A program made the translations under genes and the position numbers. Below the pieces are notes generated by a model. That model was not told where the DNA came from. It did not search any database and saw nothing but the letters and a program-made list of their open reading frames with translations. From a virus (lineage: Duplodnaviria > Caudoviricetes), in the IMG/VR virus record IMGVR_UViG_2906610324_000001, positions 57,324-121,323 of that record: DNA of 64,000 nt; one strand, given 5' to 3'. Shown here piece after piece: positions 1-42,782 of the stretch; the stretch's first letter is position 1, and every line of letters starts with the position of its first letter.

Positions 1-302
1 CGCTCGGCGCCCTCTACGGATTTCAGCGCGCGCGCCACGTAATCCGCTGCATTGTTGGCGTCGGCGATCCGCAGGTGATTGCGCGCGGTGCGGATCAACT
101 GCGCGGCAAGCCGGACACGCTCCAGGCGGGAGGCCGGCGGCGTTTCCAATAGCGACAACTGCGCGTCACGCTTCTGCAGGCGCTCAATCTCGGCCAGCGC
201 CAAGTCAGCTTGTGCGCTCGGGCTGTCGCTGTCCTCGTGCGGAACGTCAACATTCAGCGCGCCAAGAATCGAGTCGGTAAAGTCGGTGCAGGTGTAAGTC
301 AT
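1..302 (-). CDS. hypothetical phage protein (runs off window)
   Basis: ATG at 302 preceded by AAAGGA SD and the hairpin motif; frame open to window edge. Confidence 0.6.
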   Translation of the reverse strand, partial: MTYTCTDFTDSILGALNVDVPHEDSDSPSAQADLALAEIERLQKRDAQLSLLETPPASRLERVRLAAQLIRTARNHLRIADANNAADYVARALKSVEGAE

Positions 303-442
303 TTGGCTTTCGTCCTTTCGTTTTGCGCACTATCGCGCAGATGGTGGAGCGACCGCGGCCAGGTGCGCGCGTCATCCACCGCGCAAAATCGGCCGTAGTC
401 GGGAGGTGCGCCGCCGGCCGGGAAATCAGCTGGCCCCGGGGG

Positions 443-850
443 TTACTCGGCGAGCTCTTCCAGGGTGACGCCGTCTTCGGCCGCATACTCGGAAATCAGA
501 GTCAGCGCCCAATCTTCCGCCGCGCCGATCATTTCGCCGTCGCCGCCGCCGTGTTTCGAGTTGACCCTGGCGCATGCGTCCGCGGTCCATCGTTCAAGGC
601 CGGGAACGTCGCCGAAAAAGTCGCGCGCGCGTTCCAAAACGGATTCCTCCGACAAGCACGCGAGGCCGTAAATCCCGGCGATGTGCTCGGCGTCGTAAAG
701 CAGCGTCAATCCGTCATCGCGGGTTGAGCGCTGGCGCGCGTAGCGCCAGGCTACGCCGTAGCGTTGCAGCGCGGAGCGGACGCGCCATCGATACTTTGAA
801 GCCTCGTTAACGAGCGTGGCGAGCGGCGAGCGGGGCAAGGTGAGATGCAT
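443..850 (-). CDS. hypothetical phage protein
   Basis: ORF MHLTLPRSP..., AAAGGA SD. Confidence 0.65.
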   Translation of the reverse strand: MHLTLPRSPLATLVNEASKYRWRVRSALQRYGVAWRYARQRSTRDDGLTLLYDAEHIAGIYGLACLSEESVLERARDFFGDVPGLERWTADACARVNSKHGGGDGEMIGAAEDWALTLISEYAAEDGVTLEELAE

Positions 851-897
851 AACGGTTCCTTTGTTCTGTGATGGGAAATCGGCCGGCGGCGGGACTG

Positions 898-1176
898 TTA
901 GCAATTCACTTCGTGAAAGCCGCGCACACCGTTCAAGACCTTGAAGCCCGGCGGGGAACGATCGCCCTTGCCAATCCGCATAGTGGCAACCGCCGGCTTT
1001 CCCGTTGCCGCCAGGTCCGCGCAGTAGTCCGCGAATGCCTTTTCTGCATCGGCCGCGCGCTTAATCTCGACTTCGCGCCGTGGGAGCGGGCTTTTGTCCT
1101 CTCCGATGCAAAGCGCCACGCTAACGAATGCGCCGTTACGTTCCGCCGCGTAGCTATTCAAGATCAGTTTCGCCAT
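898..1176 (-). CDS. hypothetical phage protein
   Basis: MAKLILNSY..., AAAGGAG SD after the motif. Confidence 0.7.
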   Translation of the reverse strand: MAKLILNSYAAERNGAFVSVALCIGEDKSPLPRREVEIKRAADAEKAFADYCADLAATGKPAVATMRIGKGDRSPPGFKVLNGVRGFHEVNC

Positions 1177-1263
1177 GTCGTTTAACTCCTTTCGAATTGC
1201 GCACCATTGCGCCGAGAAAATCGGCCGCAGCCGAGGGATTGAGGAAATCGGCCGCAACCGGGA

Positions 1264-1677
1264 CTAGGCCGCGGCGGCTTGCTCGGCCGGCTTTTCGTCG
1301 GTCTGCGAAACGTCGAAAACCGGTACCAGGATGAACCGCACCGACTCCGCCGCGGCCTCGGCCGCGGCGCCGTCCGCGCTCGGCGCCGCTGAGGCCTCGG
1401 CCGTTGCGCGCCGGCCGGACGGCGCAAAGATGTAGATTGCGGACTCGCCTTTGCGGACCGCGCGGCCGGCGGCAAGCCATTGATTGAAGCCGCCCAGCAT
1501 AGTTGCGCCTTCGCATTGCATCGCCGCCAGCATGTGATTTTTTCCGGATATCGGCCGCGCGTCCGCGGTGAGGATCGGCGCGCGCTGCAGCCAAAGCGCC
1601 TTCTGCTCTTCCGTCATGTTGGCAATCTGGCGCGCCAGTTGCGCGGCCTTTTCTTTGTTGGGATTCGGTTTCCGCAT
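1264..1677 (-). CDS. ArdC N-terminal (ssDNA-binding, DUF1738-like) domain protein
   Basis: SGKN..L...GGFNQWLAAGRAVRKGESAIYIFAP...VPVFDVSQT matches the ArdC-N pattern; no metallopeptidase domain. Confidence 0.75.
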   Translation of the reverse strand: MRKPNPNKEKAAQLARQIANMTEEQKALWLQRAPILTADARPISGKNHMLAAMQCEGATMLGGFNQWLAAGRAVRKGESAIYIFAPSGRRATAEASAAPSADGAAAEAAAESVRFILVPVFDVSQTDEKPAEQAAAA

Positions 1678-1747
1678 GGTCTGTTTTCCTTTCCGTTTGC
1701 GCACAATCGCGCGTGTTGCATTCCGTGAGGCCGAGGCGCGCCGCGGC

Positions 1748-1945
1748 TTAGTGCAGTTCCCAAGCGCGCAATTCGACGCGTGAACGCTTGCCGCGCTTGA
1801 ATTCGTCGCAGCGGCGCGCGTATTCCTCGGCCTCGGCGGCGGTATCAAACCGCCGAGATAGTTCGCCCCAATTGTTGAATTCGCAGCGATCAATCAGGCG
1901 AAACTTTGCGCCAACGGGCAAGATATCGAATCCATAGGCTCGCAT
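1748..1945 (-). CDS. hypothetical phage protein
   Basis: ORF in cluster, GGAG SD. Confidence 0.55.
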   Translation of the reverse strand: MRAYGFDILPVGAKFRLIDRCEFNNWGELSRRFDTAAEAEEYARRCDEFKRGKRSRVELRAWELH

Positions 1946-1960
1946 TGCTGGCGACTCCGA

Positions 1961-3058
1961 CTAGCTGGCGCGGATCGCGCAGAAAGGCGCAACCGGGAGG
2001 GATGGCCGAGGCGCGCCGAGCGATGACGAGGCCAGGAAGCGCGCGGCGCGGGAAGGCGCAACCGGGATAGGGGCCGCGGAGTTGGGCGCGGGCGCAACCG
2101 GGAGGGCATCGACCGTATCCGGGAGGGAAGCCGCCGCGGTTTCGACGCCGGCGGAATTGTTTGCGACAAGCCGCAACCGCGGCGCCTCGGCCTCGGCCTT
2201 GGCTGCAGCTGCGCGCGCCTCGGCCTCTTGCTCGGCGCGCCGGCCGGCCTCGGCCTCGGCCTTTGCCGCGGCTTTGGCCTCGGCCTCGGCCGCGCGAACG
2301 ACGGCGCGGCGCCGCGCTTCAATTTCCAGCCATGCCATACCGCCGAGGCGCGACCGATAGTCTGCAATCTGCGCGCCGAGCTCGGCCGCGCGTTCCTCGT
2401 CGGCGCCGGCCAAAATCTCGGCCTCGGCCGAGGCAATGAGGTAGTGCCCGCGGTAGAAGTCGGCGCGCGTCAACCCGCCGGCCTCGGCGGTTTCCGGCAA
2501 GGCCGAGGCCTCGGCGGAAAGCGCGACATGATCGAAACGGCCGCGGCGATATTCGGCCGTCCGCGCGTTGCATTCCTCGGCCGGATATTCGGCGCCGGTA
2601 GCGTCACAGATGGCAGAAACGATGGACGGGACCGCGACACAATCGGAACCGATTGCCGAGGCTTTCCCGAATTCCCGCGCGACCCGCGCGCGGTAGAAGG
2701 CGAAGGCAACGCGCAAGCCGCGGCCGATATTGACCGGCTTGCCAGGCAGTGAAACGGCTGGCGCGCGTACCACGGCGCCGCATACAAACGTCACAACGAT
2801 GATAGGCGACTTGCCTAGCTTTTTCGTCGCGCTTGCCGGGATGACATAATCCGCCCATGGATCCGCCGCGCCGTCCGGGATATTGGCCGCGCCGGATCCG
2901 GCTTTCTGCGCCGGCAATGCGAGGCGCAGCAAATCGGCAATGCCGCGCCAGTTCGCGCCGTCGGGATTCGCGGTCGCGTTGTCATAGGCGAGGATCGCCA
3001 GCGCGCGCCGTTCCGTTGCCTTTGCGGCCTTGGCCGCGATCAAATCAACCTGTTGCAT
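1961..3058 (-). CDS. hypothetical protein with Ala/Glu-rich coiled coil and C-terminal (L/I)PVAP repeats
   Basis: 365-aa ORF after motif and SD. Confidence 0.7.
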   Translation of the reverse strand: MQQVDLIAAKAAKATERRALAILAYDNATANPDGANWRGIADLLRLALPAQKAGSGAANIPDGAADPWADYVIPASATKKLGKSPIIVVTFVCGAVVRAPAVSLPGKPVNIGRGLRVAFAFYRARVAREFGKASAIGSDCVAVPSIVSAICDATGAEYPAEECNARTAEYRRGRFDHVALSAEASALPETAEAGGLTRADFYRGHYLIASAEAEILAGADEERAAELGAQIADYRSRLGGMAWLEIEARRRAVVRAAEAEAKAAAKAEAEAGRRAEQEAEARAAAAKAEAEAPRLRLVANNSAGVETAAASLPDTVDALPVAPAPNSAAPIPVAPSRAARFLASSSLGAPRPSLPVAPFCAIRAS

Positions 3059-3153
3059 GGTCCATTGTCCTTTCTGATTTGCGCACGATTGCGCCGAGAA
3101 TTGAGGGAAGGCCGAGGCCAGGTTAGGCCGTAGCTTTGGCGCGGCGCCGCGCG

Positions 3154-3423
3154 TCAATCGCGGCGCGTATCACTTTTCTTGAACCGCGGCGCATAACGGC
3201 CGTTGAATGCACGCAATTCAGAAAAGGCGATATCGGCCGCGGCCTTGGCAATCCGGTATCGCGGATCGAATTTAATTCGGTCCGGAGTCAGTCCCATCGG
3301 ACCGCGCGCCGGAATCCCCATTTCGGCCGCAAGGCCTTCTGTCACGGCGCCGAGGCGCGCGCCGGCCTCTTTGATCCGGTTATCCAACTCGGCCGCGGCG
3401 GCTTGGAATGCTGCAAAATCCAT
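3154..3423 (-). CDS. hypothetical phage protein
   Basis: ORF MDFAAFQ..., tightly packed. Confidence 0.65.
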   Translation of the reverse strand: MDFAAFQAAAAELDNRIKEAGARLGAVTEGLAAEMGIPARGPMGLTPDRIKFDPRYRIAKAAADIAFSELRAFNGRYAPRFKKSDTRRD

Positions 3424-3431
3424 CGGTGCAC

Positions 3432-3620
3432 CTAGACGCTTTCGTCAAAGCGCGCGGCCTCAAAGTCGCGGCTTGCCTGTTCTGCCTCGGCGCCGGTAAG
3501 CATGCGGCGGCTTGTCGGATAATAGAACGCGCGCGTTCCGACCGGGATGAAATGCCCGTTGCGGTCATTGGCCGGATATTTGGTAATGATCCATCGCGGA
3601 TCGCCGCCATAGCGTGCCAT
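3432..3620 (-). CDS. hypothetical phage protein
   Basis: MARYGGDPRWI... after motif and SD. Confidence 0.65.
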   Translation of the reverse strand: MARYGGDPRWIITKYPANDRNGHFIPVGTRAFYYPTSRRMLTGAEAEQASRDFEAARFDESV

Positions 3621-3685
3621 TGTAGTCTGTCCTTTCCAGTTTGCGCACAATCGCGCGGGAGACAAATTCGACGGCCGAGGCCGAG

Positions 3686-3826
3686 CTATTCCAGCATGTC
3701 CGCAATGAACCGGACCGCGGCCGGATATCGGCAGAAACTGCGCAGCAATGCGACGATTCCGCGCGCCGTGTAGTAACCCGCCGGGATACCGTGCAAGTTA
3801 TCCGGAATGAAGGTTTCGCGGTCCAT
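3686..3826 (-). CDS. small hypothetical protein
   Basis: MDRETFIPDNL..., coupled to the upstream gene. Confidence 0.5.
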   Translation of the reverse strand: MDRETFIPDNLHGIPAGYYTARGIVALLRSFCRYPAAVRFIADMLE

Positions 3827-3830
3827 TGGC

Positions 3831-4169
3831 CTAGTATCCTGCAGCCTCGGCGGAATAGTCGCGCTGGCCAGTCTCGGCGGTTTGCCAGTCCGGAAAGCGC
3901 GCGCCGTTTTCGGTATCGTTGTAACCCGCCGAAAGCCTATCGGCCGGGCAGGTGCAAACGCCATCGCGGGTTATGCGTCCAACGCAGTCCGCGCCATCGT
4001 TGCACCATTCGTTAGTCACGGTTTGCCCGTCGAAAGAAAAGATATTGGACTCGCGCGTCCATCCTTCGTCCGTTCTGGCGCCGTGCGAATGGTGCAACGT
4101 TTGGCCAGTCCGCAACGCGATACGGACAAGGCCGGATTTGTGATAGTGCCAAAAGCGCGCTGTTTTCAT
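3831..4169 (-). CDS. hypothetical phage protein
   Basis: MKTARFWHY..., GAGGG SD. Confidence 0.7.
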   Translation of the reverse strand: MKTARFWHYHKSGLVRIALRTGQTLHHSHGARTDEGWTRESNIFSFDGQTVTNEWCNDGADCVGRITRDGVCTCPADRLSAGYNDTENGARFPDWQTAETGQRDYSAEAAGY

Positions 4170-4179
4170 GCGGTATCCC

Positions 4180-4509
4180 TCACGGAAGGCGGTTAAAGAC
4201 GGAATGATAGGCCGAGGCCTCGGCGATGCACTCGCGCGCGGCCTCAAGATTGCGAGCGCGCGCCATGGGCGAGTTTTTCGCGGCGCGCCGATAGTAAGCC
4301 GCCCAGTGCAAAGCCTCGGCCGCAAGCGCGCGGCGCGGCCGGCAAGATAGCCGCGACGTCCGCAAGGCAACCGGACCGGCCGCGCGTTCTGCGCGCGCCG
4401 TGAATTCCGTTCCGTTGCAGACAATCCAGAACGTTGCCACATTGTGGCGCCGGCCGCGCGCCTCGGCGCGTAGCGCGGAAATGGTGCGGCGGAATGCATC
4501 GCGGTTCAT
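4180..4509 (-). CDS. hypothetical phage protein
   Basis: ATGA overlap with the upstream gene. Confidence 0.6.
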   Translation of the reverse strand: MNRDAFRRTISALRAEARGRRHNVATFWIVCNGTEFTARAERAAGPVALRTSRLSCRPRRALAAEALHWAAYYRRAAKNSPMARARNLEAARECIAEASAYHSVFNRLP

Positions 4510-4910
4510 GCTGCGCGCTCCAGTTCGCAAGCCGCGGTCCATCCGGTTGCGCGATCATAGGAGGCCGCGCGCGCGATCATTGGCGGCTTGCGCAATTCGT
4601 CATCTGGCGGAATCACGCCATAGCGTTCCGGCGCGGCGTCAAGTTTCGCCATGGCTGCAGCATGCTCGGCCGCGCGCCACACATTGAAGGCCGCGACGAT
4701 ATGCGCCGGTAGCGGTTCAGCGTATCGGACAAGCATGCCGATTCCGGTTCGCATGGCGCGGCGGACATCATCGCCATTTGCTATCGATAGCTCATAGTCT
4801 GAAACGGAATGACGGATGCTAACCTCATAGCTCTCGGTTTCATCCGTGACGCGATAGTAGACGGTCCCCATGTAGGAACATTTCCAAGTGAATTGCGGCT
4901 TGCGTGTCAT
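4506..4910 (-). CDS. hypothetical phage protein
   Basis: ORF after the degenerate motif copy. Confidence 0.65.
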   Translation of the reverse strand: MTRKPQFTWKCSYMGTVYYRVTDETESYEVSIRHSVSDYELSIANGDDVRRAMRTGIGMLVRYAEPLPAHIVAAFNVWRAAEHAAAMAKLDAAPERYGVIPPDDELRKPPMIARAASYDRATGWTAACELERAA

Positions 4911-4937
4911 CGTCAAGGCCTTTCGGGTTGCGCGCAG

Positions 4938-5381
4938 TTAGATGACGCGAACGGTTGCGCCGGCCGGCAAATGAACCGCGCAACCGCCGTGAGAGTCGCG
5001 GCGCTTGATCTCCAGATGGACCGGCAGCCATCCGGTTGACTTCCCGACATAGAACCGGGACCGCGCGCCATCTGGCGCGGTGACTTCTACGCGCTTCCCT
5101 TCGAGGCCGATTAGTTGCGGCGCCAGCTGCGCGGGACAACGCGACCTAGTCGCGGCCGCATGATTGGCGCCGGCCTTCATTGTCGCGCGGTAGACTCGAT
5201 AATGCTGGATTGTGCCGGGCTTGAATGCGCCGAGGCCTGGAGGGACCGCGGCCGAGGGAAGCCAGGCCGCGACGTCGCGCGCCCATCTCTCGGCGACACT
5301 GAAGCCAACGCAAGTATATCCGGCGCCGGATCGCAGAACATAAAGGCCTTGCTCGGCATTGATGGAATGAAAGTCACTCAT
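4938..5381 (-). CDS. hypothetical phage protein
   Basis: MSDFHSINAEQG...FYVGKSTGWLPVHLEI, after motif. Confidence 0.7.
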   Translation of the reverse strand: MSDFHSINAEQGLYVLRSGAGYTCVGFSVAERWARDVAAWLPSAAVPPGLGAFKPGTIQHYRVYRATMKAGANHAAATRSRCPAQLAPQLIGLEGKRVEVTAPDGARSRFYVGKSTGWLPVHLEIKRRDSHGGCAVHLPAGATVRVI

Positions 5382-5475
5382 CTCGGTTTGTCCTATTCGG
5401 TTTGCGCACAATCGCGCTTTGGTCCGCTTTGGCGTTCCGTTGTGCGGCGCGCCTCGGCGCCGCACCGTCGGAAAG

Positions 5476-5892
5476 TCAGTTGGAGGGAACGAAATTCATT
5501 CCCGTGCGGTCCAATGCCTCAAGTTTGAGGAAAGCGCGGACACGTTCCAAAGCATCCGGCCAAAGAATGACGCCGCCGCTTGTCGCCGGATCGTCGCTCC
5601 AATTGAGTCCGGCCAGAACGAAAGCCGGGCAAAAATCCCAATCGAATTGGACTTGATCGCGCTCGGAGTCCGTAAGGGATTGCCAAACGGTTTCGCAGTC
5701 TGGAGCGAGCCGGATCATGATATGGCGCATTTCGTATGCGCCCCATCCGTCACGGTATTGGTCAACTAGTTCCGCGGCGGCTTTGATTTCCGCGGGACGA
5801 TCGTTGCGCCATTCCGGGTTGCTGGCGTCAATACAGGCTTCCCAGAGGCAAAGCGCGGCCTCGGCAATAAGCGGATTCAACTCGGTTTGCAT
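5476..5892 (-). CDS. hypothetical phage protein
   Basis: GAGGAG SD, 138 aa. Confidence 0.7.
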   Translation of the reverse strand: MQTELNPLIAEAALCLWEACIDASNPEWRNDRPAEIKAAAELVDQYRDGWGAYEMRHIMIRLAPDCETVWQSLTDSERDQVQFDWDFCPAFVLAGLNWSDDPATSGGVILWPDALERVRAFLKLEALDRTGMNFVPSN

Positions 5893-5904
5893 CTCGGGCG
5901 CTCC

Positions 5905-6009
5905 TCAAAGGCACGAATTCAGAAAAGCGCGCTTGCCGTCGCGCACCGCGGCGCGCCGAGTCCGCTTGTCGCTCGGCCGGCGGTCGGAATCATGCTTGCG
6001 ATACTTCAT
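5905..6009 (-). CDS. small basic protein (34 aa)
   Basis: MKYRKHDSDRR..., follows motif and SD. Confidence 0.5.
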   Translation of the reverse strand: MKYRKHDSDRRPSDKRTRRAAVRDGKRAFLNSCL

Positions 6010-6101
6010 GGCCTTTTTCCTTTTCGAATTGCGCACAATTGCGCGGTTTCGGCGGTTTGCCGGTTATGCCGTGACGTGCACGGCATAGGCTGCAAATCGC
6101 G

Positions 6102-6341
6102 TTAGTTGATACGCTCGCAAGCGCCGGTTTCAGCGTTCCAGCGTATCAGCATATCGTTAGCTCGGATCGAAAGGCCGCGGGACATGCGGACGTCGCGCGG
6201 CGCCGGCCGGCCGGTTTCGTGAAACCATTGGCCGAGGCGGAATGCAATGTGCGTTGCGCTACTCCACAAGTGCGGATTGGCCGAGGCCGGCGCGGCATAG
6301 CCGGCCGAGGCATAGGCGGTTAAGTCATCGGGCTTTGCCAT
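6102..6341 (-). CDS. hypothetical phage protein
   Basis: MAKPDDLTAY..., GAGGAG SD. Confidence 0.6.
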   Translation of the reverse strand: MAKPDDLTAYASAGYAAPASANPHLWSSATHIAFRLGQWFHETGRPAPRDVRMSRGLSIRANDMLIRWNAETGACERIN

Positions 6342-6354
6342 TGCGGCGCGCTCC

Positions 6355-6435
6355 TCAAAGGCAGCATACGAAAATGACAAACGTTCCGACTAAAGCCGCC
6401 GCGCAGAACAGAACAAAATCAAGTGTATCGTCCAT
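6355..6435 (-). CDS. small hydrophobic peptide (26 aa)
   Basis: MDDTLDFVLFCAAALVGTFVIFVCCL, follows motif and SD. Confidence 0.45.
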   Translation of the reverse strand: MDDTLDFVLFCAAALVGTFVIFVCCL

Positions 6436-6480
6436 TGGTCTAGCCTTTCGATTTGCGCACAATCGCGCGGTGGAAAAGTG

Positions 6481-6693
6481 TTAGCGGTTGCTGATGACTC
6501 GGAATCGGCTTTCGTGAACGCAAAGCCTTCCGCCATCCGCGAATTTGACGATGTGCCAGCCCGGCTGGATTGGTCCGCTTGCCGCGGTCCATCGCGCGAT
6601 TTTCGCGACCTCTGGCGCGACGCTGGGAAAGCCGCCAATCGCTGGCGTGCCATGCAATTCAATGCGCGATCCGGTTTTGAGGGATTGAGACAT
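6481..6693 (-). CDS. hypothetical phage protein
   Basis: AGAGG SD, 70 aa. Confidence 0.6.
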   Translation of the reverse strand: MSQSLKTGSRIELHGTPAIGGFPSVAPEVAKIARWTAASGPIQPGWHIVKFADGGRLCVHESRFRVISNR

Positions 6694-6703
6694 GCTTGGC
6701 CTC

Positions 6704-6868
6704 TTAGCGGCGGTTGAGGCGCGCGCGGCGCCGGATCAGAAGGCGGCGAGGCTTTGCCGGAATGCAGTGGATTGCGAAGAGGACGAGCCAGCACGCGGAA
6801 TAGATCGCTGCAAACGTGGCCAGAGTGAAAGCCGGGTTAGCGATGCAAAAGGAAATGAAGTCGTTCAT
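6704..6868 (-). CDS. small membrane protein, first gene of the leftward cluster
   Basis: one hydrophobic segment; follows motif. Confidence 0.55.
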   Translation of the reverse strand: MNDFISFCIANPAFTLATFAAIYSACWLVLFAIHCIPAKPRRLLIRRRARLNRR

Positions 6869-6917
6869 TTCGCCGGGCCTTTGAAGTTGCGCACAATCGC
6901 GCCGTGGTGACGCGTAC

Positions 6918-6990
6918 ATGCGCAGATGTCGGCGCGGCCGTCAATGGGTAAAACGCAAAATTGCGAGAAAAAGTTGTATTTGTTCGGCTG
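6918..6990 (-). promoter_or_regulatory. putative sigma70-type promoter of the leftward cluster
   Basis: TTGACGG-N11-TCTGCGCAT with an AT-rich tract upstream. Confidence 0.55.
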
Positions 6991-7010
6991 AGTATCGCAA
7001 TATTGAGACG

Positions 7011-7322
7011 TTAGCCGTCTAGTGCAGCATTGATCCGGCCCAGCAATTCGGCGCGCTGGCGCCCGGTATCCGGTCTAATTCCTGCAATGATCGCCCAAAT
7101 CTGCCGTGCGATGTCAGGCCCAGCACCATTGGCCCGATACTGCGCCAGCGTGTTCTCGGACACGTAGAGCAGGCGCGCAGCTGCGGCATTCGAGAGGCTT
7201 GCGCCTTCCTGCCAGGCCCGGAATTCAGCCGCGCTGATTCTGAGTGAAACATCAGCGGAAGAGAAAGCCCGGCTTGCTGGCTTGCGCTTGGCCATTGGCT
7301 TGCTGGTCTTTGTGTCGGTCAT
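7011..7322 (-). CDS. helix-turn-helix DNA-binding protein
   Basis: LSNAAAARLLYVSENTLAQYRANG resembles an XRE-like HTH. Confidence 0.6.
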   Translation of the reverse strand: MTDTKTSKPMAKRKPASRAFSSADVSLRISAAEFRAWQEGASLSNAAAARLLYVSENTLAQYRANGAGPDIARQIWAIIAGIRPDTGRQRAELLGRINAALDG

Positions 7323-7437
7323 TGGACGCCTCAAGATTGAGTTATGCCGCAGTCATCCAACCCGCAACTATCACGGAATTGAGTTGCTGCGGGCGCCGTC
7401 CCTGCTGTCATCCACCGTCAAGCGGTGGAACAGCGAT

Positions 7438-7533
7438 TTGACAGCCGACTCAATTTGCGATTCAGAGCAAGCACGGTGACGCATTGTCGCTGCAATCCAA
7501 CGCCCGCCAGGTCGCACCGCCTTGGCGGGTTTC
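7438..7533 (+). promoter_or_regulatory. possible late promoter (TTGACA) followed by a hairpin/terminator
   Basis: TTGACA at 7438-7443; CCCGCCA..TGGCGGG-TTT at 7503-7532, upstream of the packaging genes. Confidence 0.3.
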
Positions 7534-7942
7534 GCATGTCAGGGGCACGGCATGGGCGAGGTAGTCGAGCTATCGCCCGACGCGCCGCGCCGTGCCCGCC
7601 GACAGCGGCGCCAGCCTGCAGTCATCATTGTGTTGCCACTGGTTCGGGTCGAGCGCTGCATCAGCGCCGCCGACGCATGGGATGCAATGCCAAGCGATAG
7701 CGCGCCGCATGGTGCGGCATAGCCGGGCGGATCGGCGTGCGCCTGCCACGACAAGCGGACGTCACCACAAGGCGAGCTAGTCGAGAGAGAAAGGCGGGCG
7801 GTTGCCGCGCGCGGCGCGGCGCCAGCGGCGCCAGCGTATCCGCTGACACTATTCGGCCAGGCTGAACCACGGCCGCACCAATCCGCCGCCACCGCAACCG
7901 ACACGCCAGCCCGCGCCAAGCCAAGCCAGCGCCTCGAGGCCA

Positions 7943-8020
7943 AGGGGTATGGGGTCGGAAAGTCTAGGAACCGACGGGACCCCCTACCGCACGGGGGCTC
8001 ATTTGCACAATTTTTTCTGC
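7943..8020. other. putative cos/packaging site region
   Basis: G-rich GGGGTATGGGGTCGGAAAGTCT, CCCC..GGGG inverted repeat and a T run directly upstream of the terS-like start, as often seen in HK97-like phages. Confidence 0.4.
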
Positions 8021-8052
8021 CGCGACCGAATTTTTCAAGGTGAAGCGTCGAA

Positions 8053-8185
8053 ATGACCGAAAAACCGGAAAACGGCGGATCTGGAGAAAATCCGGCGGCC
8101 AAGCCGAAATCGGCGCCACGGAAAAAGGCCAGGAAGCCAGCGAAGCGGAAGGCGAAGGCCCGCGCAAGCAAGGGGGGCCGCGGAC
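8053..8185 (+). pseudogene. 5' fragment of probable terminase small subunit
   Basis: basic MTEKPEN...SKGGRGR start that runs out of frame into mid-TerL sequence. Confidence 0.45.
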
Positions 8186-9346
8186 GTGGTCGGCGGCAAG
8201 AAAGCCGCCTTCGTCCTGGTCGACGAGCTCTGGATCTTCGGCAAGCGTGCCAACGCCGCTGCGATGTTTCAGGAAGCGACCGGCGGTCTCGTATCGAGGA
8301 AAGAGGGCTTCGTCGTCTATCTCTCGACGCAGTCAGACGCGCCGCCGGCCGGTGTGTTCAAGGAGAAGCTCGACTATTTCCGCGACGTCCGTGACGGCAC
8401 CATTGTGGATCCGACCAGCTTCGGGATGCTCTACGAATTCCCGGAGGCCATAATCAAGGCGAAGGCCTACCTCGACCCGTCGAACTGGCGGATCACGAAC
8501 CCGAATCTCGATCTTTCCGTCAGCACCGAATGGCTGCTGAGCGAACTGACCAAGGCCCAGCGCGGCAACGAGGACGCGCTCCGGACCTTCCTAGCCAAGC
8601 ATCTCAACGTCGAGATCGGCATGAACCTCCGGGCCAATCGTTGGCCTGGCGCAACGCATTGGCAGAAGCGCGGCGATCAGAAGATCACGCTGCGCTACCT
8701 GTTCAAGGTCTGCGACGTCATCGTGCCCGGTATAGACGGCGGCGGGCTCGACGACCTCTTTGGGCTCAGCTTGCTGGGCCGGCACAAGATCACGAAGGAC
8801 TGGCTCCTCTGGGTGCATGCGTGGTGCCACCGCGGCGTGCTCGATCTGCGGCACTCGATCGCACCGCGCCTGCTGCAATTCGAAAAGGAGGGCGATCTCA
8901 CGATCGTCGATGACGAACTCGAGGACATCTCGAAGATCGTTCGCATCATCAAGTTGGTGAAGAAGAAGCGGCTCCTGGGCGGTGTTTCGGTCGACCCTGC
9001 CGGCCTCGGCGAATTCGTTGACGCCTTGGCCGACAAGGAAATCGACATCACGGTCGAGAACAAGCTGCTCATCGGCGCCCCGCAGGGCTTCGGCATGATG
9101 AACAGCATCAAGACCTGCGAACGCAAGCTGGTCAAAGGAACGCTGCGGCACGCGCCGAGTCCGATGATGGATTGGTGCGTCAGCAATCTGAAGATCGAGC
9201 CGACTGCCACGGCAATCAGGGCAACGAAGCAGACCGCGGGCGATGCCAAGATCGACCCCGCGATTGCGATGTTCAATTCAGCCTACCTGATGGCGACCAA
9301 TCCAAAGGCTCATGGCCACGCGAAGCCGAGGGCCATGGTTCTTTGA
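8186..9346 (+). pseudogene. terL: terminase large subunit, N-terminally truncated
   Basis: starts just before Walker B (VLVDE); has coupling motif LSTQ, nuclease GIDGGGLDD and KIDP; Walker A region absent. Confidence 0.8.
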
Positions 9347-12102: not shown

Positions 12103-13515
12103 ATGACGCGCCATTTCGCGCCGCGCAGCCTGCTGTCTGCTGCGCCTCGTGCACTCATGCTCCCGGGAGTCCGCGCCGACGTAAGTCCGGCCGAGCTCGT
12201 CCAGGGGCTCACCAAGGATCTGGGCGACTTCAAGTCGGCTCAGGTCGAAGCCATGAAGCAGCTCGAGAAGGTCGTGAACGACTTCCGTGCTGCCAACGAC
12301 ACGTCGTTGAAGGCGAAGGTCGACGATGCCGTGATGACCGAGCAGGTCAACCGCATCAACGCCGCGATCGACGAGGGCGTGAAGCAGCAGAAGGATATCG
12401 GCGCCAAGATCGACAAGATCACCGCTGAGATCGAGAAGCTGACCGAGAAGCAGGCGTCCCTGACCGTTCTGGGCAATGGCACCAAGGCGAGCAAGGATCC
12501 GCGCACGTCGAACCCGAACTTGCCGGAGTACGCGAAGGCGTTCAACCGGTACTTCCGCCGCGGCGAGAATGCCGTGGAAGGTGGCGCCTCGGCGCTGCGC
12601 GACCTCGAGGTGAAGGCCGCGATGTCCGTCGGCTCCGATCCGGATGGTGGCTACACCGTCCTGCCGGAGATCGAGCAGACCATCGACGAGGTCGTCCAGC
12701 AGATCTCGCCGATGCGCGATCTCGCGACCGTCATGACGATCGGCACCTCGGAGTACCGCAAGCTGGTCAACCAGCACGGCACCGCCTCGGGCTGGGTCGG
12801 TGAGGTGGACTCGCGTCCGCAGACTGCCGGATCGAACCTGAGCGAGCTGAAGTTCCCGATCATGGAGATGTATGCCATGCCGGCAGCGTCCCAGAGCCTG
12901 CTCGACGACGCGTTCGTCGACATCGGCGCCTGGATCGCCGGTGAGGTGCAGCTCGAGTTCGCCCGCCAGGAAGGCAACGCCTTCGTGGTCGGCGACGGCC
13001 AGAACAAGCCGAATGGCATCGTCGGTGGCTACCAGACCGTGGCCAACAACGCCTATGCCTGGGGCAAGATCGGCTTCGTGACCACCGGCGCCGCCGGCGC
13101 CTTCGCGAACGCCAACCCGGCTGACTGCTTGGTCGACCTCCTGCACTCGGTGAAGAGCCCGTACCGCATCAATTCGACCTTCGTGGCGAACCGCGGCACG
13201 CTCGGCGCGATCCGGAAGCTGAAGGACGGCCAGGGCAACTACCTCCTGAACATGGTCCTTCGTCAGGAGGGCTTCATCGAGGAGATCCTCGGTCGTCCCG
13301 CGGTCGAGATGCCTGACATGCCGGACATGGGCGCGAACTCGCTCTCGGTCGCTTACGGCGATTTCAAGCGCGCCTATCTGATCATCGACCGGATCGGCAT
13401 TCGCGTCCTGCGCGACCCGTACACCGCCAAGCCCTACGTGCTGTTCTACACGACCAAGCGCGTCGGCGGTGGCGTGCAGAACTTCGAGGCGTTCAAGCTC
13501 CTGAAGTTCGCGTAA
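12103..13515 (+). CDS. major capsid protein, HK97 family
   Basis: coiled-coil delta domain, DGGYTV.PE, GDFKRAY, RDPYT..KRVGG. Confidence 0.95.
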   Translation: MTRHFAPRSLLSAAPRALMLPGVRADVSPAELVQGLTKDLGDFKSAQVEAMKQLEKVVNDFRAANDTSLKAKVDDAVMTEQVNRINAAIDEGVKQQKDIGAKIDKITAEIEKLTEKQASLTVLGNGTKASKDPRTSNPNLPEYAKAFNRYFRRGENAVEGGASALRDLEVKAAMSVGSDPDGGYTVLPEIEQTIDEVVQQISPMRDLATVMTIGTSEYRKLVNQHGTASGWVGEVDSRPQTAGSNLSELKFPIMEMYAMPAASQSLLDDAFVDIGAWIAGEVQLEFARQEGNAFVVGDGQNKPNGIVGGYQTVANNAYAWGKIGFVTTGAAGAFANANPADCLVDLLHSVKSPYRINSTFVANRGTLGAIRKLKDGQGNYLLNMVLRQEGFIEEILGRPAVEMPDMPDMGANSLSVAYGDFKRAYLIIDRIGIRVLRDPYTAKPYVLFYTTKRVGGGVQNFEAFKLLKFA

Positions 13516-13611
13516 GCGCGCTCCGAGCCACGTTCGCAAGCGCGGCTCGGCCAACGCCGGGCCGCGGCACCTTCCCCCCAATTTCCTCAACCTTCAGAAG
13601 GGACCTGCGCT

Positions 13612-14007
13612 ATGAAGCGTGATCTCCGGAGCAACGTTGACGTTGCTCAGACTCTTGCGCCGGCGGCCCGTGTGAACGGCACCGCAAACGGCGTAACCGT
13701 CGACCTCCAGGGCTACGAGAGCGCGATGTTTGCGTTCGAGGCCGGTGCATGGACCGACGGCTCGCACACCCCGTCGATCCAGCACAGCGATGACGGCACG
13801 ACCTTCGTTGCCGCCGCAGCCCCGGACATCCAGGGCGCATTCGCTCCTGTTACCAGCGGCGCCGGCCAGAATGCCGTGCAGCGCGTCGGCTATGTCGGCA
13901 GCAAGCGCTACGTCCGCGGATCGGTCCTCACGTCCGGCGCGACCACCGGCCTGGTGCAGTCGATGGCCGTCGTCCGCTCGAGGGCCCGTGTGTCGCCGCT
14001 TCCGTAA
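13612..14007 (+). CDS. putative head decoration/virion protein
   Basis: position after MCP; GVTVDL.GY...VGY.G.KRYVR. Confidence 0.65.
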   Translation: MKRDLRSNVDVAQTLAPAARVNGTANGVTVDLQGYESAMFAFEAGAWTDGSHTPSIQHSDDGTTFVAAAAPDIQGAFAPVTSGAGQNAVQRVGYVGSKRYVRGSVLTSGATTGLVQSMAVVRSRARVSPLP

Positions 14008-14094
14008 CCGAATGCGGAGGGATCAGGTGCGGCGCTGTATCCATGACGGCGCCGCAGCCTGTGAGCCGGTGTTCAACATTTAGGGAGACCTGCC

Positions 14095-14598
14095 ATGAGC
14101 GCAGTAGTCGTGACGCCGTTTCCTGGCGTCAAGGATGGCGAGACCAATCCAACCCATTTCGTCGAGGGAGACGTGATTGATGGGGACCTCGCTGAGACCG
14201 CCTTGAGGTATGGCCTCGCGGTCCAGGAGGGTAGCGAAGGGGCCGATACCGCCGGTGCTGGCGATGGCGGCGGAAAGGTGATCGTCGTCGACGGCCAGGT
14301 CGAGATCCCGGAGAACTGGCCGAAACTGAAATGGTTTGCCCTGAAGGCCTTGGCCGAGAAGATCCTCGGCAAGCCCGTGGCAGGAACCGATGAGGCCCGC
14401 AACATCGTGCAGGCGGAGGTCGACCGGCGCGCGAATCCCGAGACGTCGGAAGCGGGCGTGGCTGGTGCTGGCGGCGATGTGGCGCCTGTCGGTCAAAAGG
14501 AAGGTGGTGAAAGCCAGGCTGGTGCCGGAAGCGCGCAGGCCGATGCCGGTGGCAAGCCTGTCGCCGGCACGGATGCCGGCGCTGCCACGGCCGGCTGA
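14095..14598 (+). CDS. hypothetical head-module protein
   Basis: GGGAG SD, position. Confidence 0.65.
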   Translation: MSAVVVTPFPGVKDGETNPTHFVEGDVIDGDLAETALRYGLAVQEGSEGADTAGAGDGGGKVIVVDGQVEIPENWPKLKWFALKALAEKILGKPVAGTDEARNIVQAEVDRRANPETSEAGVAGAGGDVAPVGQKEGGESQAGAGSAQADAGGKPVAGTDAGAATAG

Positions 14599-14629
14599 TA
14601 TCTGGATCGGCTGCGACGGCGAGGCGTAG

Positions 14630-37257: not shown

Positions 37258-37524
37258 ATGTTCAGCGGGGCAACGTTAGCCGCCGTCCTGACCGCTCTGC
37301 AGCCGCTCCTGGAGGCGTTCTTCAGCGCCTTCGGGAGCTCGCTGAACGACTTCTTGGCGCGGCAGCGGGCCGACCAAAACGCCAAGGATCTCGGCGCGGC
37401 TCAGGCCACCGTCCAACAGCAGAATGCCACGATTGATGCGCAACAGGCCGAGCTCGAGGCGCGAACGAACGCCCCTAAGTCTGTCGACGACGCCATCAAG
37501 CGGCTCGAGGAGGGCTCAGCTTGA
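37258..37524 (+). CDS. i-spanin-like protein
   Basis: hydrophobic N-terminus plus coiled coil. Confidence 0.5.
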   Translation: MFSGATLAAVLTALQPLLEAFFSAFGSSLNDFLARQRADQNAKDLGAAQATVQQQNATIDAQQAELEARTNAPKSVDDAIKRLEEGSA

Positions 37525-37763
37525 CCTTCACCTGCACCGGCTGGGCCTTCATCGCGGTCCAGCTTACTTGCATCATGCCAGATCAGGCGCCCGCGGTTGT
37601 TTGTCCGCCGGTTCGGGCCTGGTCCCAGGACTTCCAGAAGCAGGTTGCCGCCGAAATGAGAGCGGCGCCGAATAGCGCGCTCGCCGCGGTCGCCGTGCAG
37701 GCGATCGGTGACCGCGACGTCGCCCGCGCCTGCGCTCGGCACAAGAATGCGGGGAAGCGATGA
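37521..37763 (+). CDS. o-spanin-like protein
   Basis: CPPV..S...RD.ARAC; overlaps previous gene; lipobox atypical. Confidence 0.45.
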   Translation: MTFTCTGWAFIAVQLTCIMPDQAPAVVCPPVRAWSQDFQKQVAAEMRAAPNSALAAVAVQAIGDRDVARACARHKNAGKR

Positions 37764-38287
37764 TGGGCGCCGCCGGCACGCCGGAGATCGTGACCCAAAC
37801 GCTCGCCGGCATGGGCTTTGCCGGCGCCGTCATTACCGTGCTTCTGAGCACGATCGCAGCGCTCGTCACTGGCCTCGTCGTCCTCTTCCGGATCAACAAC
37901 CGGCTACACGCGGAGCGGAAGACGGAGCTCGCCACATTCAGCAAGTTGGTCGAGGCCAACAATGCGGCGCTGACCAAGGTCGCGGAAGCGACCGAGGAGC
38001 GAAACCGCGTCACGGAAGCGCTCGCCGAAGCCATCAAGGTGCAGGCCACAGCGTTCGAGATGGTGAACCAGCGCATAGAATTCTACCACGGCAACAACAT
38101 CGAGAAGTTGAAGGACCTGATCAGCGCATTTGCCGCTCACGCTGAAGCCGTCCGAGTGCTCACCGGCTCCGTGACGGTCTCGAGGGATAGCAGCGCAGCG
38201 GCGGCGGCCGCGGCCAATGAATTGAAGGTGAAGATAGATAGTATCGCGTCAAAAATTGATGGGGCCCTTTTGCGGAGGCCGCGATGA
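37760..38287 (+). CDS. membrane-anchored coiled-coil protein
   Basis: N-terminal TM segment. Confidence 0.6.
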   Translation: MMGAAGTPEIVTQTLAGMGFAGAVITVLLSTIAALVTGLVVLFRINNRLHAERKTELATFSKLVEANNAALTKVAEATEERNRVTEALAEAIKVQATAFEMVNQRIEFYHGNNIEKLKDLISAFAAHAEAVRVLTGSVTVSRDSSAAAAAAANELKVKIDSIASKIDGALLRRPR

Positions 38288-38583
38288 GCCTCTACCGGAA
38301 AATGTTGCGCCAGATTTACATCATTCGACACCACTTCATTCGGCCGTTCGATGACGAGGAAATCGAAAAGGCATCAGTCGAAAATGCATTGCATGACCAC
38401 AACGCCACAATGCGCCGCCTCGATACCGCCGATCGAGAGATCAGCCAGGCGCAGGGTAGGCTTCGTGAAGCAGTAAGCCTTTCGCGTTCGTCGAGCGAGT
38501 CCGCGCACACATCGCCCCGGCACGACGAAATTGCGCAACTCGTTCATGACATGCGGTCGTTCGGACATAGGCAAGGGAATTGA
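38284..38583 (+). CDS. hypothetical protein
   Basis: ATGA overlap. Confidence 0.55.
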   Translation: MSLYRKMLRQIYIIRHHFIRPFDDEEIEKASVENALHDHNATMRRLDTADREISQAQGRLREAVSLSRSSSESAHTSPRHDEIAQLVHDMRSFGHRQGN

Positions 38584-38584
38584 A

Positions 38585-38974
38585 ATGCTAAAGTTTCTGG
38601 AGGGAGCTAACGGTACGCTGGCGTTTCTGCTTATCTTTGCCTGCTTCATGTTCGGCGTCTACATGGTCCGCGAGATCGTGGAGAACGGCGTCAAGCGCGT
38701 CCGCCTTCAGGCCGCGATATCGTTGCTGGTCACCTTTGCGCCCGAGGCCGCTTCCCGGATCTGGATCTGGTATTGGCGCCACCTCGACAACAGCGGCATG
38801 GATGCCGATTCCATGCTGCACAGCCCGGTGCTGCTGGTCACCGCCCTTGTCCAGATCCTCGGCGTGGCCTGCGTCATTCGGGTCTTCGCACCCGACCGCT
38901 GGGGCAGGAGGGTCTGGATATTCACCACCATCGTAGCGGCCGCGATCGCCGTCACGCTTTCCCACATCCCATAG
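38585..38974 (+). CDS. 4-TM membrane protein
   Basis: hydrophobic helices. Confidence 0.6.
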   Translation: MLKFLEGANGTLAFLLIFACFMFGVYMVREIVENGVKRVRLQAAISLLVTFAPEAASRIWIWYWRHLDNSGMDADSMLHSPVLLVTALVQILGVACVIRVFAPDRWGRRVWIFTTIVAAAIAVTLSHIP

Positions 38975-38982
38975 GCGGCAAC

Positions 38983-39156
38983 ATGGACCGAATCGTCACA
39001 ATCGCCGCCGGGGCCGGCGTCGTCGCGGTGCTTGCTGGGTTCGTGATGGTGAATATCGCGAAGTCGGTCGATGAGACCAATATGGGGTTCGGAGTTGCCT
39101 TCACCGGCCTGTTGGTGGTGGCGATGTGCTTTATCCTCGCATCCATTTCATCATGA
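38983..39156 (+). CDS. small 2-TM protein
   Basis: two hydrophobic helices. Confidence 0.5.
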   Translation: MDRIVTIAAGAGVVAVLAGFVMVNIAKSVDETNMGFGVAFTGLLVVAMCFILASISS

Positions 39157-40256: not shown

Positions 40257-40308
40257 GCTCTCGAGTTGAGCGGTTGACGCGTCGGTACGGTTCAGATTCA
40301 AGAATTCG

Positions 40309-42747: not shown

Positions 42748-42782
42748 GGCCGGGATCTATGCACCGCCCGCCAAAATGCGAG

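Follow-up and report, generated by a model that had tools for sequence, protein, structure and literature searches.

Cluster K mycobacteriophages carry start-associated sequences (SAS), with 11 to 19 copies per genome, confined to non-structural genes and nearly always oriented with the gene, just upstream of the start codons of a gene subset (Pope et al. 2011, PMC3203893). A SAS has 13 bp, is asymmetric (GGGATAGGAGCCC) and lies at the translation-initiation site, and the extended SAS consists of two imperfect 17-bp inverted repeats with a variable 4- to 13-bp spacer; these sequences are conserved gene by gene between related phages, and their function is not known (PMC3203893). Small conserved 5'-leader hairpins beside the ribosome-binding site (RBS) of phage counter-defense genes are found in the Aca1 and Aca2 systems, where anti-CRISPR operons have one or two such motifs in the leader, to which the co-encoded Aca protein binds (PMC13551039 and work cited there). 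In T4-type phages, PeSLs combine an early sigma-70 promoter with a terminator stem-loop (PMC2839356, PMC4122927).

The repeat described here, from a Bradyrhizobium-type prophage, resembles the SAS in being repeated at non-structural genes, in sense orientation and close to the start codon, and in being kept gene by gene. Unlike the SAS, it forms a hairpin of 14 nt whose loop is fixed, lies upstream of the Shine-Dalgarno (SD) sequence, shows compensatory changes and has additional copies in chromosomal toxin-antitoxin operons. With the Aca motifs it shares an RBS-adjacent hairpin, an HTH gene in the same operon and an RNA hairpin that is also an inverted repeat on the DNA; it differs in having 11 copies inside one cluster and in occurring also in genomes that lack the HTH-like proteins of the cluster. 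Like the PeSLs, the copies are conserved motifs between genes, are interspersed through a variable block of small early genes and coincide with boundaries of insertion, deletion and replacement between close relatives, but here there are no promoter hexamers, and the hairpin lacks a U-tract and is tied to the SD.

In early RNA of phages lambda and P22, N binds boxB, a GC-rich stem of 5 bp capped by a small loop. Our hairpin has a comparable stem and loop and a small arginine-rich protein encoded nearby, but its loop is unlike GNRA, boxA is absent, and the copies are many and at a fixed SD spacing. In the E. coli ompA leader, the Bacillus STAB-SD and the phage SP82 stabilizer, a hairpin and/or a strong SD blocks 5'-dependent decay, working at the very 5' end of the transcript and without a conserved loop sequence. 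The similarity here is a small hairpin and/or strong SD near the 5' side of the cistron, together with the position of a chromosomal brnTA copy ~7 nt after the -10 box (see below); however, most copies lie within what is presumably a polycistronic RNA and would require a putative processing step.

A repeated module in the early accessory cluster

The window (the whole 64,000-nt stretch of DNA analyzed) contains nine matches to GCGCRATNGTGCGC, exclusively on the minus (mRNA) strand, while shuffled windows had a mean of 0.14 and none of 100 shuffles reached nine, in agreement with the original prediction. Its description of the variation was also accurate: stem pair 5 is G.U in six copies and A-U in three (1199, 3081 and 6031), and the loop is AUUG in six, with AUAG, AUGG and AUCG once each. 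As it stated, the copies are followed by AA and then by an AAAGG or AGGA SD, the exception being the SD AAUAGGA at 5404. It had noticed the motif nowhere else in the window, and scoring the entire window position by position with a covariance model detected no further good copy and a single extra match, a loop-less remnant at 4916-4939 (16.8 bits). The Rfam check that it suggested gave no match to any described family.

The copies belong to a leftward early/accessory cluster of 27 small genes, including anti-restriction-type genes, which occupies positions 1 to 7322 of the window (minus strand) and extends outside it to provirus position ~52.1 kb. The first gene is HTH-like (7011-7322) and divergent from the terminase gene at 8186. 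Because the cluster continues past the window edge, the count of nine was incomplete: the complete 121,323-bp provirus contains 11, every one of them on the minus strand and between 52.5 and 64.2 kb of the genome. One of the two copies just beyond the edge is the compensatory variant GGGCG-AAUG-UGCCC.

All modules are on the minus strand, with AA directly after the hairpin; bit scores are those of the covariance model over the window. Module 1 (6866-6902, 38.6 bits) has the hairpin GCGCG-AUUG-UGCGC (6889-6902), the SD CAAAGG and the ATG (6868) of a 54-aa membrane-like protein (6704-6868). The same hairpin recurs in module 2 (6433-6468, 44.3 bits; hairpin 6455-6468, SD GAAAGG, ATG 6435), which precedes a 26-aa hydrophobic peptide. 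Module 3 (6007-6044, 41.4 bits), with GCGCA-AUUG-UGCGC (6031-6044), SD AAAAGGA and ATG 6009, heads the gene of a conserved 34-aa arginine-rich peptide (5905-6009). Module 4 (5379-5417, 35.3 bits; GCGCG-AUUG-UGCGC at 5404-5417, SD AAUAGGA, ATG 5381) precedes a 147-aa protein (phrog_10759) on a cassette missing from the relative G002. A degenerate copy (4908-4939, 16.8 bits) retains the stem arms without the loop, GCGC-GCGC-AA-CCCGAAAGG, before the ATG (4910) of the gene at 4506-4910, whose G002 orthologue has an intact hairpin. Then follow module 5 (3618-3656, 39.7 bits; GCGCG-AUUG-UGCGC at 3643-3656, SD GGAAAGGA, ATG 3620) and module 6 (3056-3094, 37.3 bits; GCGCA-AUCG-UGCGC at 3081-3094, SD GAAAGGA, ATG 3058), the latter before a 365-aa protein. 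Module 7 (1675-1712, 44.1 bits; GCGCG-AUUG-UGCGC at 1699-1712, SD GGAAAGGA, ATG 1677) belongs to an ArdC-N-like anti-restriction protein (1264-1677). Module 8 (1174-1212, 38.4 bits) has GCGCA-AUGG-UGCGC (1199-1212), SD GAAAGGAG and ATG 1176, and module 9 (300-338, 38.3 bits) has GCGCG-AUAG-UGCGC (325-338), SD GAAAGGA and ATG 302, its gene extending past the left end of the window. Two copies of a second repeat, element B, lie immediately upstream of module 8; element B is sometimes a small, terminator-like hairpin with a T-run, and most of its copies lack a hairpin fold.

Base pairing, strand and spacing

Five related proviruses have 9 to 11 copies each, and pairing was evaluated on 87 distinct copies from the six proviruses and other loci. 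The hairpin consists of four G-C pairs, an R-U closing pair and the loop A-U/C-N-G, followed 3' by an unpaired AA. Stem positions are paired in 99.5% of cases. Pair 5 is G.U in 48 copies (55%), A-U in 31, G-C in one and never A.C, a pattern that would leave the antisense strand less well paired. At pair 2, 79 copies have C-G and seven have G-C, and pair 1 varies among G-C, G.U and U-A. Compensatory changes were found at pairs 1 to 4, and direct reading identified the stems UCGCA/UGCGA and GCGA/UCGC in G003, the most diverged phage of the set, GCGUG/UACGC in L254 and CUCA/UGAG in Mesorhizobium. When sites were picked blind to the stem, solely by AA-N1-5-[ACG]AAAGG-N5-14-ATG, a hairpin ended exactly at the AA in seven of seven G003 sites, with six different stems, and in 10 of 11 sites of the present provirus (G000), against 29 of 212 sites in unrelated loci and none of seven sites in the remainder of G000. 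Thermodynamics by itself gives weak support, with predicted energies of merely -5.3 to -6.8 kcal/mol, a median pair probability of 0.66 in a ±70-nt context and local-fold z-scores near 0.

The module reads hairpin, AA, 2 to 5 nt, GAAAGGA, ca. 9 nt and ATG. From the 3' end of the hairpin to the ATG there are 19 to 22 nt in all 11 copies of G000 and 17 to 24 nt family-wide, and each of the ca. 100 copies at phage and toxin-antitoxin loci has the orientation of its gene and a fixed SD distance. In G000 the hairpin marks the long intergenic gaps (11 of the 15 of at least 27 nt) and is missing before closely packed genes (none of the 11 gaps of at most 15 nt). GAAAGGA is complementary to UCCUUUC. 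The 15-mer GGATCACCTCCTTTC, which we take to be the 16S rRNA 3' tail, has two to five occurrences per host genome, counted genome-wide. The compensatory pairs, the lack of A.C, the uniform orientation and the fixed SD distance bear out the earlier preference for an RNA hairpin over a dsDNA operator, and these comparisons support selection for pairing of the hairpin on the coding strand.

Copies outside the phage cluster

Chromosomal phd-doc, gp49/HigB-type and brnTA operons, in genomes without the phage cluster, were found to carry single hairpin-plus-SD modules in their leaders. In three genomes, with one copy each at an E value of ≤0.001, the hairpin is conserved in the phd-doc leader, between pepF and pntAB, while the rest of the leader is unconserved. 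The operon has a promoter and operator of its own upstream of the hairpin, which lies 55 to 75 nt from this recognizable promoter and therefore is not at the 5' end of the primary transcript. Another copy is located between a gp49/HigB-like toxin and its antitoxin. In the brnTA operon the hairpin lies ~7 nt past a TTGACA-N17-TATACA promoter, and the first SD-like sequence 3' of it has no ATG. No homologue of the two HTH-like proteins of the cluster was found in the five toxin-antitoxin genomes. The original prediction of a phage regulon, which implies a phage-encoded reader, fits poorly with a module conserved in such leaders, and it is because these copies occur without the cluster and its HTH-like proteins that we favor a cis-acting RNA element read by the host.

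Alternative explanations

A purely structural insulator or stabilizer would not need the strict conservation of the stem, the A-U..G of the loop and the 3' AA over 87 copies, which counts against it and points to a sequence-specific reader. This reader could be a dedicated phage-encoded RNA-binding regulator that represses or activates the translation of all early units together, an explanation that we consider rather unlikely. Candidates would be either of the two HTH-like proteins bracketing the cluster, with Aca2-like dual DNA and RNA binding, or the 34-aa arginine-rich peptide, which is conserved in all Bradyrhizobium-type relatives, the diverged G003 included. The first gene of the cluster has a weak HTH_17 match (E = 0.0087); the last is HTH-like by eye and has a private GGGC/GCCC variant in all those examined (G000 to G005 and strain Leo170). 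Aca1 and Aca2 set a precedent in which HTH proteins bind RBS-adjacent hairpins in anti-defense operons (PMC13551039). However, both HTH-like proteins are below the Pfam cutoff and without a PDB sequence match, the toxin-antitoxin genomes lack them, and the peptide has no convincing match in Mesorhizobium or at the toxin-antitoxin loci.

Action on the DNA, either as a phage-specific promoter just before each SD or as a dsDNA operator made of two GCGC half-sites spaced by one helical turn, appears improbable. GCGC-N6-GCGC is symmetric on DNA, and the order stop codon, element B, hairpin and SD resembles the T4-type PeSLs (PMC4122927), but no sigma-70-like site (-35/-10-like hexamers) was present at any hairpin copy. 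Searches found no phage sigma factor (no Sigma70_r2 match, with positive controls) and no T7-type single-subunit RNA polymerase (without a positive control). In addition, the within-genome compensation of GCGC to GGGC by GCGC to GCCC would be unnecessary for a promoter contacted asymmetrically or for a half-site of fixed sequence, the G.U frequency without A.C is a single-strand, sense-strand signature, and the phd-doc element lies well downstream of a recognizable promoter and operator.

The repeat might instead be mainly a recombination junction, kept for moving cassettes between phages and with little or no role in expression. This cassette-junction alternative, already raised in the original prediction, draws support from homology blocks shared by related phages that have the element at one end or the other: in comparisons of G000 with G002, G001 or G004 the block ends fall within ~20 nt of hairpins, a patch of 45 nt, covering no more than the hairpin and its flank, is conserved between non-homologous genes, and, compared with G002, the segment 4938-5417 is an inserted cassette with the loop-less copy at its right edge. 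As the main function it is similarly improbable, though: recombination needs sequence identity, not pairing, and G003 retains pairing with six stem sequences. Compensatory changes occur in the stem, the distance to the ATG is narrowly held, the single copies in toxin-antitoxin leaders have nothing there to shuffle with, and junctions at gene boundaries are expected whatever sits there.

Nut-like sites, at which an arginine-rich protein would drive read-through of terminator-like B elements as in lambda N/boxB, are very improbable: the stem resembles P22 boxB (5 bp, GCGC-rich), the cluster encodes the arginine-rich peptide and such B elements separate some units, but the loop does not resemble a GNRA pentaloop, the cluster has no boxA-like sequence, there are 11 sites per operon versus one or two, tight SD spacing is unnecessary for antitermination, the toxin-antitoxin copies lack the peptide and most B copies do not form a hairpin.

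A proposed portable translation-start module

The best overall explanation, to which we assign a probability of about one-half, would be a portable, cis-acting translation-start module that acts post-transcriptionally and relies on host machinery, not on a factor private to the phage. The hairpin would be the 5' edge of a standard module with the extended SD GAAAGGA, one of which would head each translation unit of the early accessory cluster that is uncoupled from the preceding gene. It would hold the strong SD clear of GC-rich upstream RNA and present it to the 30S platform, and a host component may read the conserved loop. After the long transcript is cut, or where it starts nearby, the hairpin might also protect the 5' side of the cistron against RNase E or RNase J acting in 5'-dependent decay. 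The outcome would be a strong, independent translation of each unit, with the conserved 30-nt module becoming, as a by-product, a site of cassette exchange between related phages. Against this explanation stand the strict sequence conservation noted above, the modest folding energies, the distance of the phd-doc hairpins from their promoter and the possibility that the toxin-antitoxin copies are relics of cassettes formerly in such phages. The module, undescribed so far, occurs also in related phages and at a few bacterial toxin-antitoxin genes.

The early cluster and its repeated hairpin module

The provirus record comprises 121,323 bp with 62% G+C, the window being its right half, and carries a lambda-like head and tail module together with 28 tRNA genes (window 47030-59950, plus strand), an unusually rich complement among temperate siphovirus-like proviruses. 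The early cluster comprises 27 minus-strand genes with little space between them, most of them small and of no known family; one product has an ArdC N-terminal anti-restriction domain, and another combines DUF3560 and methyltransferase domains. The product of the first gene (7011-7322) has a weak HTH_17 match under the cut-off (E = 0.0087), and that of the last gene is HTH-like by eye only, with no match in Pfam, PHROG, or PDB; a PDB sequence search gave no match for either protein. The divergent terminase large subunit frame (386 aa, window 8186-9346, plus strand) matches positions 318 to 669 of a broad PHROG profile of 812, that is, only its C-terminal part, and no obvious upstream exon candidate was seen in 7330-8186. 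A transposase of 523 aa (window 40309-41880, plus strand; phrog_688, E = 1e-128) probably belongs to an insertion sequence inside the provirus. Just past the cluster end lies a markedly AT-richer segment (provirus ca. 50.4-51.9 kb; ca. 13070-14600, minus strand, of L187, which is provirus 37324-57323), coding for an ATPase with a Walker A motif and ABC/OLD-like features that may be a defense-type cargo gene.

The pattern GCGCRATNGTGCGC occurred nine times in the window, only on the minus strand and between 325 and 6902, in agreement with the nine copies on the mRNA strand of the original prediction; this count was reached by none of 100 shuffles (mean, 0.14). The conserved sequence is GCGCRAUNGUGCGCAA, a hairpin followed by AA, located 5' of the Shine-Dalgarno (SD) sequence GAAAGGA. 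Read along the minus strand, the module runs hairpin, AA, 2 to 5 nt, GAAAGGA or a near variant, ca. 9 nt, and ATG. With a covariance model made from 20 copies, 11 were found across the provirus; each is sense to its gene and lies on the minus strand of the early cluster (provirus 52.5-64.2 kb), and the rest of the 121 kb has none. The two outside the window are a canonical hairpin 5' of the DUF3560-methyltransferase gene and a variant, GGGCG-AAUG-UGCCC, 5' of the last gene of the cluster. To the earlier observation that the motif is seen nowhere else in the window, the model added only a loop-less remnant at 4916-4939, its two stem arms directly adjoining each other.

The stem has 4 to 5 bp and the loop is fixed at 4 nt, or 6 nt with the R-U pair open (AUUG, AUCG, AUAG, AUGG, ACUG, ACCG, and AAUG were seen). 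The 3' end of the hairpin lies 19 to 22 nt from the ATG at every copy in this provirus. Within the cluster, the hairpin occupies 11 of the 15 intergenic gaps of at least 27 nt and is absent from all 11 gaps of up to 15 nt, which, together with the fixed distance to the ATG, indicates that it heads each translation unit uncoupled from the preceding gene. GAAAGGA is complementary to UCCUUUC; the 15-mer GGATCACCTCCTTTC, taken here as the 3' end sequence of 16S rRNA in alphaproteobacteria, was present two to five times per genome in three host genomes, its location in the 16S rRNA genes being assumed.

Conservation of stem pairing

The 109 hits of the model corresponded to 87 distinct sequences, in which 99.5% of the stem positions were paired. 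Pair 1 was G-C in 84 sequences, G.U in one, U-A in one, and unpaired in one; pair 2 was C-G in 79 and G-C in 7; and pair 5 was G.U in 48, A-U in 31, G-C in one, and unpaired (U.U) in one, with A.C in none of the aligned copies. Since this alignment was fitted to the model, variant stems were also read directly. They included UCGCA-AUUC-UGCGA, GCGA-AUUU-UCGC, GGCA-AUCA-UGCC, and GGGCG-CUUAA-UGCCC in the most diverged related phage (G003), GCGCG-AUCG-CGCGU in strain Leo170, GCGUG-AUCG-UACGC at a toxin-antitoxin locus, and CUCA-ACUG-UGAG in Mesorhizobium. The predicted hairpin is thus borne out by pairing kept through compensatory variants. In all relatives examined (this provirus, G001 to G005, and strain Leo170), the GGGC/GCCC variant stands before the same gene, the last of the cluster, and probably goes back to a single old event.

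Counting hairpins of any kind ahead of an SD was dropped as a statistic because the background of such a count is 40 to 45% in this GC-rich DNA, and a register-specific test blind to the stem was adopted instead. Sites matching AA-N1-5-[ACG]AAAGG-N5-14-ATG were scored for a hairpin of at least 4 bp ending exactly at the AA, which was found at all seven sites of G003 (with six different stems), 10 of 11 in the cluster studied here, and nine of nine in the relative G004; the figures were 29 of 212 for unrelated loci and 0 of 7 for the rest of this provirus. In a background scan of viral contigs for the 3' arm, AA, and SD, a complementary 5' arm accompanied 2 of 114 among the matches listed. Predicted hairpin energies range from -5.3 to -6.8 kcal/mol, the median pairing probability within a ±70-nt context is 0.66, and local folds around the hairpin are not more stable than shuffles, so that thermodynamic predictions, taken alone, would lend it modest support.

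RNA structure or DNA site

An mRNA hairpin fits better than a double-stranded site, as originally proposed, because all copies are sense, G.U is frequent and A.C absent (a pattern that works on the sense strand only), and the spacing to SD and ATG is tight. A phage-specific promoter, of the T7 type or read by a phage sigma factor, needs a cognate polymerase or sigma, and neither was found in the provirus: PF04542 (Sigma70_r2) gave no match, with positive controls run, and neither did PF00940 (T7-type RNA polymerase), in a search without a positive control. A consensus scan detected no sigma-70-like promoter at any copy, the one site in 8.3 kb lying at 8038-8010, and no terminator was found at the motif. 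The hairpin also matched no Rfam 15 family, as only tRNAs reached the gathering score in the whole window and the three matches in 1-8200 at E ≤ 10 were at chance level and away from it. Literature searches with the motif sequence returned unrelated primers only. An integron attC site was ruled out by eye, the element being far shorter and GCGCAAC misfitting RYYYAAC, and complementarity of the loop to CAAU at the start codon was discarded because it held for two copies only.

Distribution in phages and in toxin-antitoxin operons

Exact matches to the pattern, searched for in IMG/VR and in one genome per species, revealed clusters of the module in other proviruses, in Bradyrhizobium genomes (B. 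embrapense SEMIA 6208, with 11 copies, and strains C9, Leo170, and Ai1a-2), and in one Mesorhizobium genome. Four proviruses searched whole held 9 to 11 copies each, on a single strand and within ca. 10 kb. Isolated matches elsewhere lay inside coding sequences (e.g., ABC-transporter genes), without ATG context. Of 151 genomes from the family, 8 carried the motif, and a covariance-model search at E ≤ 1e-5 gave 0 of 150 other genomes of the order, with 47 candidates scored per genome; at this limited sensitivity, its range appears narrow. A dispersed host repeat in B. embrapense (G005) contains GCGCGACCTGCGCAATCGGAAAAG, a look-alike of hairpin, AA, and purine run (ca. 27 bits) with no start codon after it (C1:1380802, C1:855630, C2:1308916, C4:345342, and C4:648280; L377-L381).

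Single hairpins were also found in toxin-antitoxin operons. The phd(AbrB-type)-doc leaders of B. elkanii WSM2783, Rhodopseudomonas palustris BisB18, and a Xanthobacteraceae MAG contain one each, the operon sitting in all three between a peptidase M3 gene and pntAB, with no second copy in these genomes at E ≤ 0.001. In their alignment, promoter and operator are conserved, the next ca. 50 nt of leader are not, and the hairpin is again conserved, with a variable spacer between it and the ATG. Among 301 genomes of the family, only distant homologues of the phd antitoxin were found, without the hairpin bar one variant. Another copy separates a gp49/HigB-like toxin gene from its HTH antitoxin, and in a brnTA operon the hairpin lies ca. 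7 nt past a TTGACA-N17-TATACA promoter, with the real ATG 45 nt further. None of the five toxin-antitoxin genomes has a homologue of either HTH-like protein of the cluster. Given that the hairpin is kept in these leaders without phage genes, a host-read, cis-acting role seems more likely than a regulon private to the phage, and the phage regulon of the original prediction is in this respect not supported as it was put.

Cassette junctions and other elements of the cluster

When the cluster was compared by BLAST with three relatives (G002, G001, and G004), homology blocks began or ended within ca. 20 nt of the hairpin or of a second sense-strand repeat, element B. A 45-nt patch (hairpin and flank alone) is conserved between unrelated genes, and the cassette at 4938-5417, with the loop-less remnant at its right edge, is inserted relative to G002. 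The suggestion that hairpins lie at cassette junctions thus has support among close relatives. As junctions at gene boundaries are expected anyway, these blocks show the element marking points of exchange but not driving it.

Element B has the consensus CCCGGCTACGRYCGATTT(T)(C/G) and, at up to three mismatches, 11 minus-strand copies (window near 1260, 1233, 891, and 401; L187 near 19000, 18975, 17110, 16490, 16465, 15240, and 15210) versus four weak plus-strand matches. Copies, at times in tandem pairs, follow the stop codon and precede the hairpin or SD; one is within the DUF3560-methyltransferase gene. Its UUUCC end is complementary to the SD, and a small UNCG-type hairpin with a U-run is predicted for some copies only. 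A 13-mer resembling its start, TCCCGGTTGCGCC, occurs within three coding sequences, where it codes for [LIV]PVAP peptides (window 1985-2110, minus strand; L187 near 19430, 19240, and 17350).

Outside the window, the leader of the last gene (L187:15150-15206, minus strand) has a UUCC directly 5' of its GGGC-variant hairpin that is able to base pair with GGAA of the SD, as at the orthologous sites in L121, L170, L227, L228, and L229. In the predicted fold this pairing lengthens the helix and hides part of the SD, and G004 has UUUC/GAAA, a compensatory change; the helix may act as a translational brake on this HTH-like gene. The cluster also encodes a 34-aa arginine-rich peptide, MKYRKHDSDRRPSDKRTRRAAVRDGKRAFLNSCL (window 5905-6009, minus strand), common to all Bradyrhizobium-type relatives (32 aa in G003), with every copy of its gene preceded by an A-U-closed hairpin. 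Its composition is reminiscent of arginine-rich RNA-binding peptides. Local tblastn found it only in Bradyrhizobium-type relatives, and not in Mesorhizobium or the toxin-antitoxin loci, and the ESM Atlas gave no useful match.

Comparison with known systems

The closest described analogues are the start-associated sequences (SAS) and extended SAS (ESAS) of Cluster K mycobacteriophages, the Aca1/Aca2 RNA motifs, and the PeSL cassettes of T4-type phages. The SAS is the 13-bp GGGATAGGAGCCC at the translation-initiation site, and the ESAS consists of imperfect 17-bp inverted repeats with a variable spacer of 4 to 13 bp (PMC3203893). The analogy drawn earlier with these signals holds for the many copies, gene orientation, restriction to non-structural genes, and placement just 5' of start codons. 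It fails for sequence, GCGCRAUNGUGCGCAA lying upstream of the SD instead of GGGATAGGAGCCC, and for form, with a stem of 4 to 5 bp and a fixed loop instead of long repeats.

The Aca-associated motifs have an HTH or ribbon-helix-helix regulator in the same operon that binds the hairpin RNA and blocks the ribosome (PMC13551039). Here, candidates for such a regulator are the gene with the weak HTH_17 match and the one recognized by eye, and the hairpins in genomes lacking both argue against dependence on these proteins. PeSL cassettes likewise mark boundaries of shuffled modules between close relatives, but carry an early sigma-70 promoter within the motif. Lacking defining features of the SAS/ESAS and the PeSL cassettes, and probably of the Aca motifs, the hairpin would work like all three by analogy while probably being a member of none. 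The boxB-type comparison was not upheld, as lambda-type nut sites have a GNRA-like pentaloop on a 5-bp stem, unlike the loops found here, and the 13-kb cluster has no boxA (GCTCTT(T)A) on its sense strand.

Possible roles and significance

These observations support the hairpin as a sense-strand RNA structure and part of a portable translation-start module. In the reading favored here, it would both present and insulate a strong SD and shield the 5' side of each cistron from decay; precedents for such roles are the ompA leader, STAB-SD, and the SP82 stabilizers. The strict conservation of the loop and 3' AA goes beyond what this model explains, so a specific reader, of host or phage origin, may exist. 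We consider unlikely a further reading, in which the hairpin serves as an address label for a shared post-transcriptional circuit. Its A-U-N-G loop and 3' AA would be recognized by a sequence-specific RNA-binding factor, perhaps a conserved host protein or else the arginine-rich peptide of the phage, which would switch the first-expressed anti-defense genes of these phages on or off together. If this were true, infection or titration of the factor by the phage would drive toxin-antitoxin activation, since host toxin-antitoxin operons bear the same label.

Repeated start-associated signals have been described in several phage groups for over a decade, to our knowledge none with a known function. 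The hairpin is unusually tractable, with 14 nt, clear covariation, a fixed distance to a strong SD, 9 to 11 copies per phage, and natural variants (compensatory stems and a loop-less copy), and its phage-free toxin-antitoxin copies permit a clean distinction between a host and a phage reader. It also marks sites of cassette swapping between these phages. Should the hairpin raise or gate translation, this would account for the even expression of many unrelated accessory and anti-restriction genes from one transcript in rhizobial temperate phages and would provide a compact, portable expression part for Bradyrhizobium.
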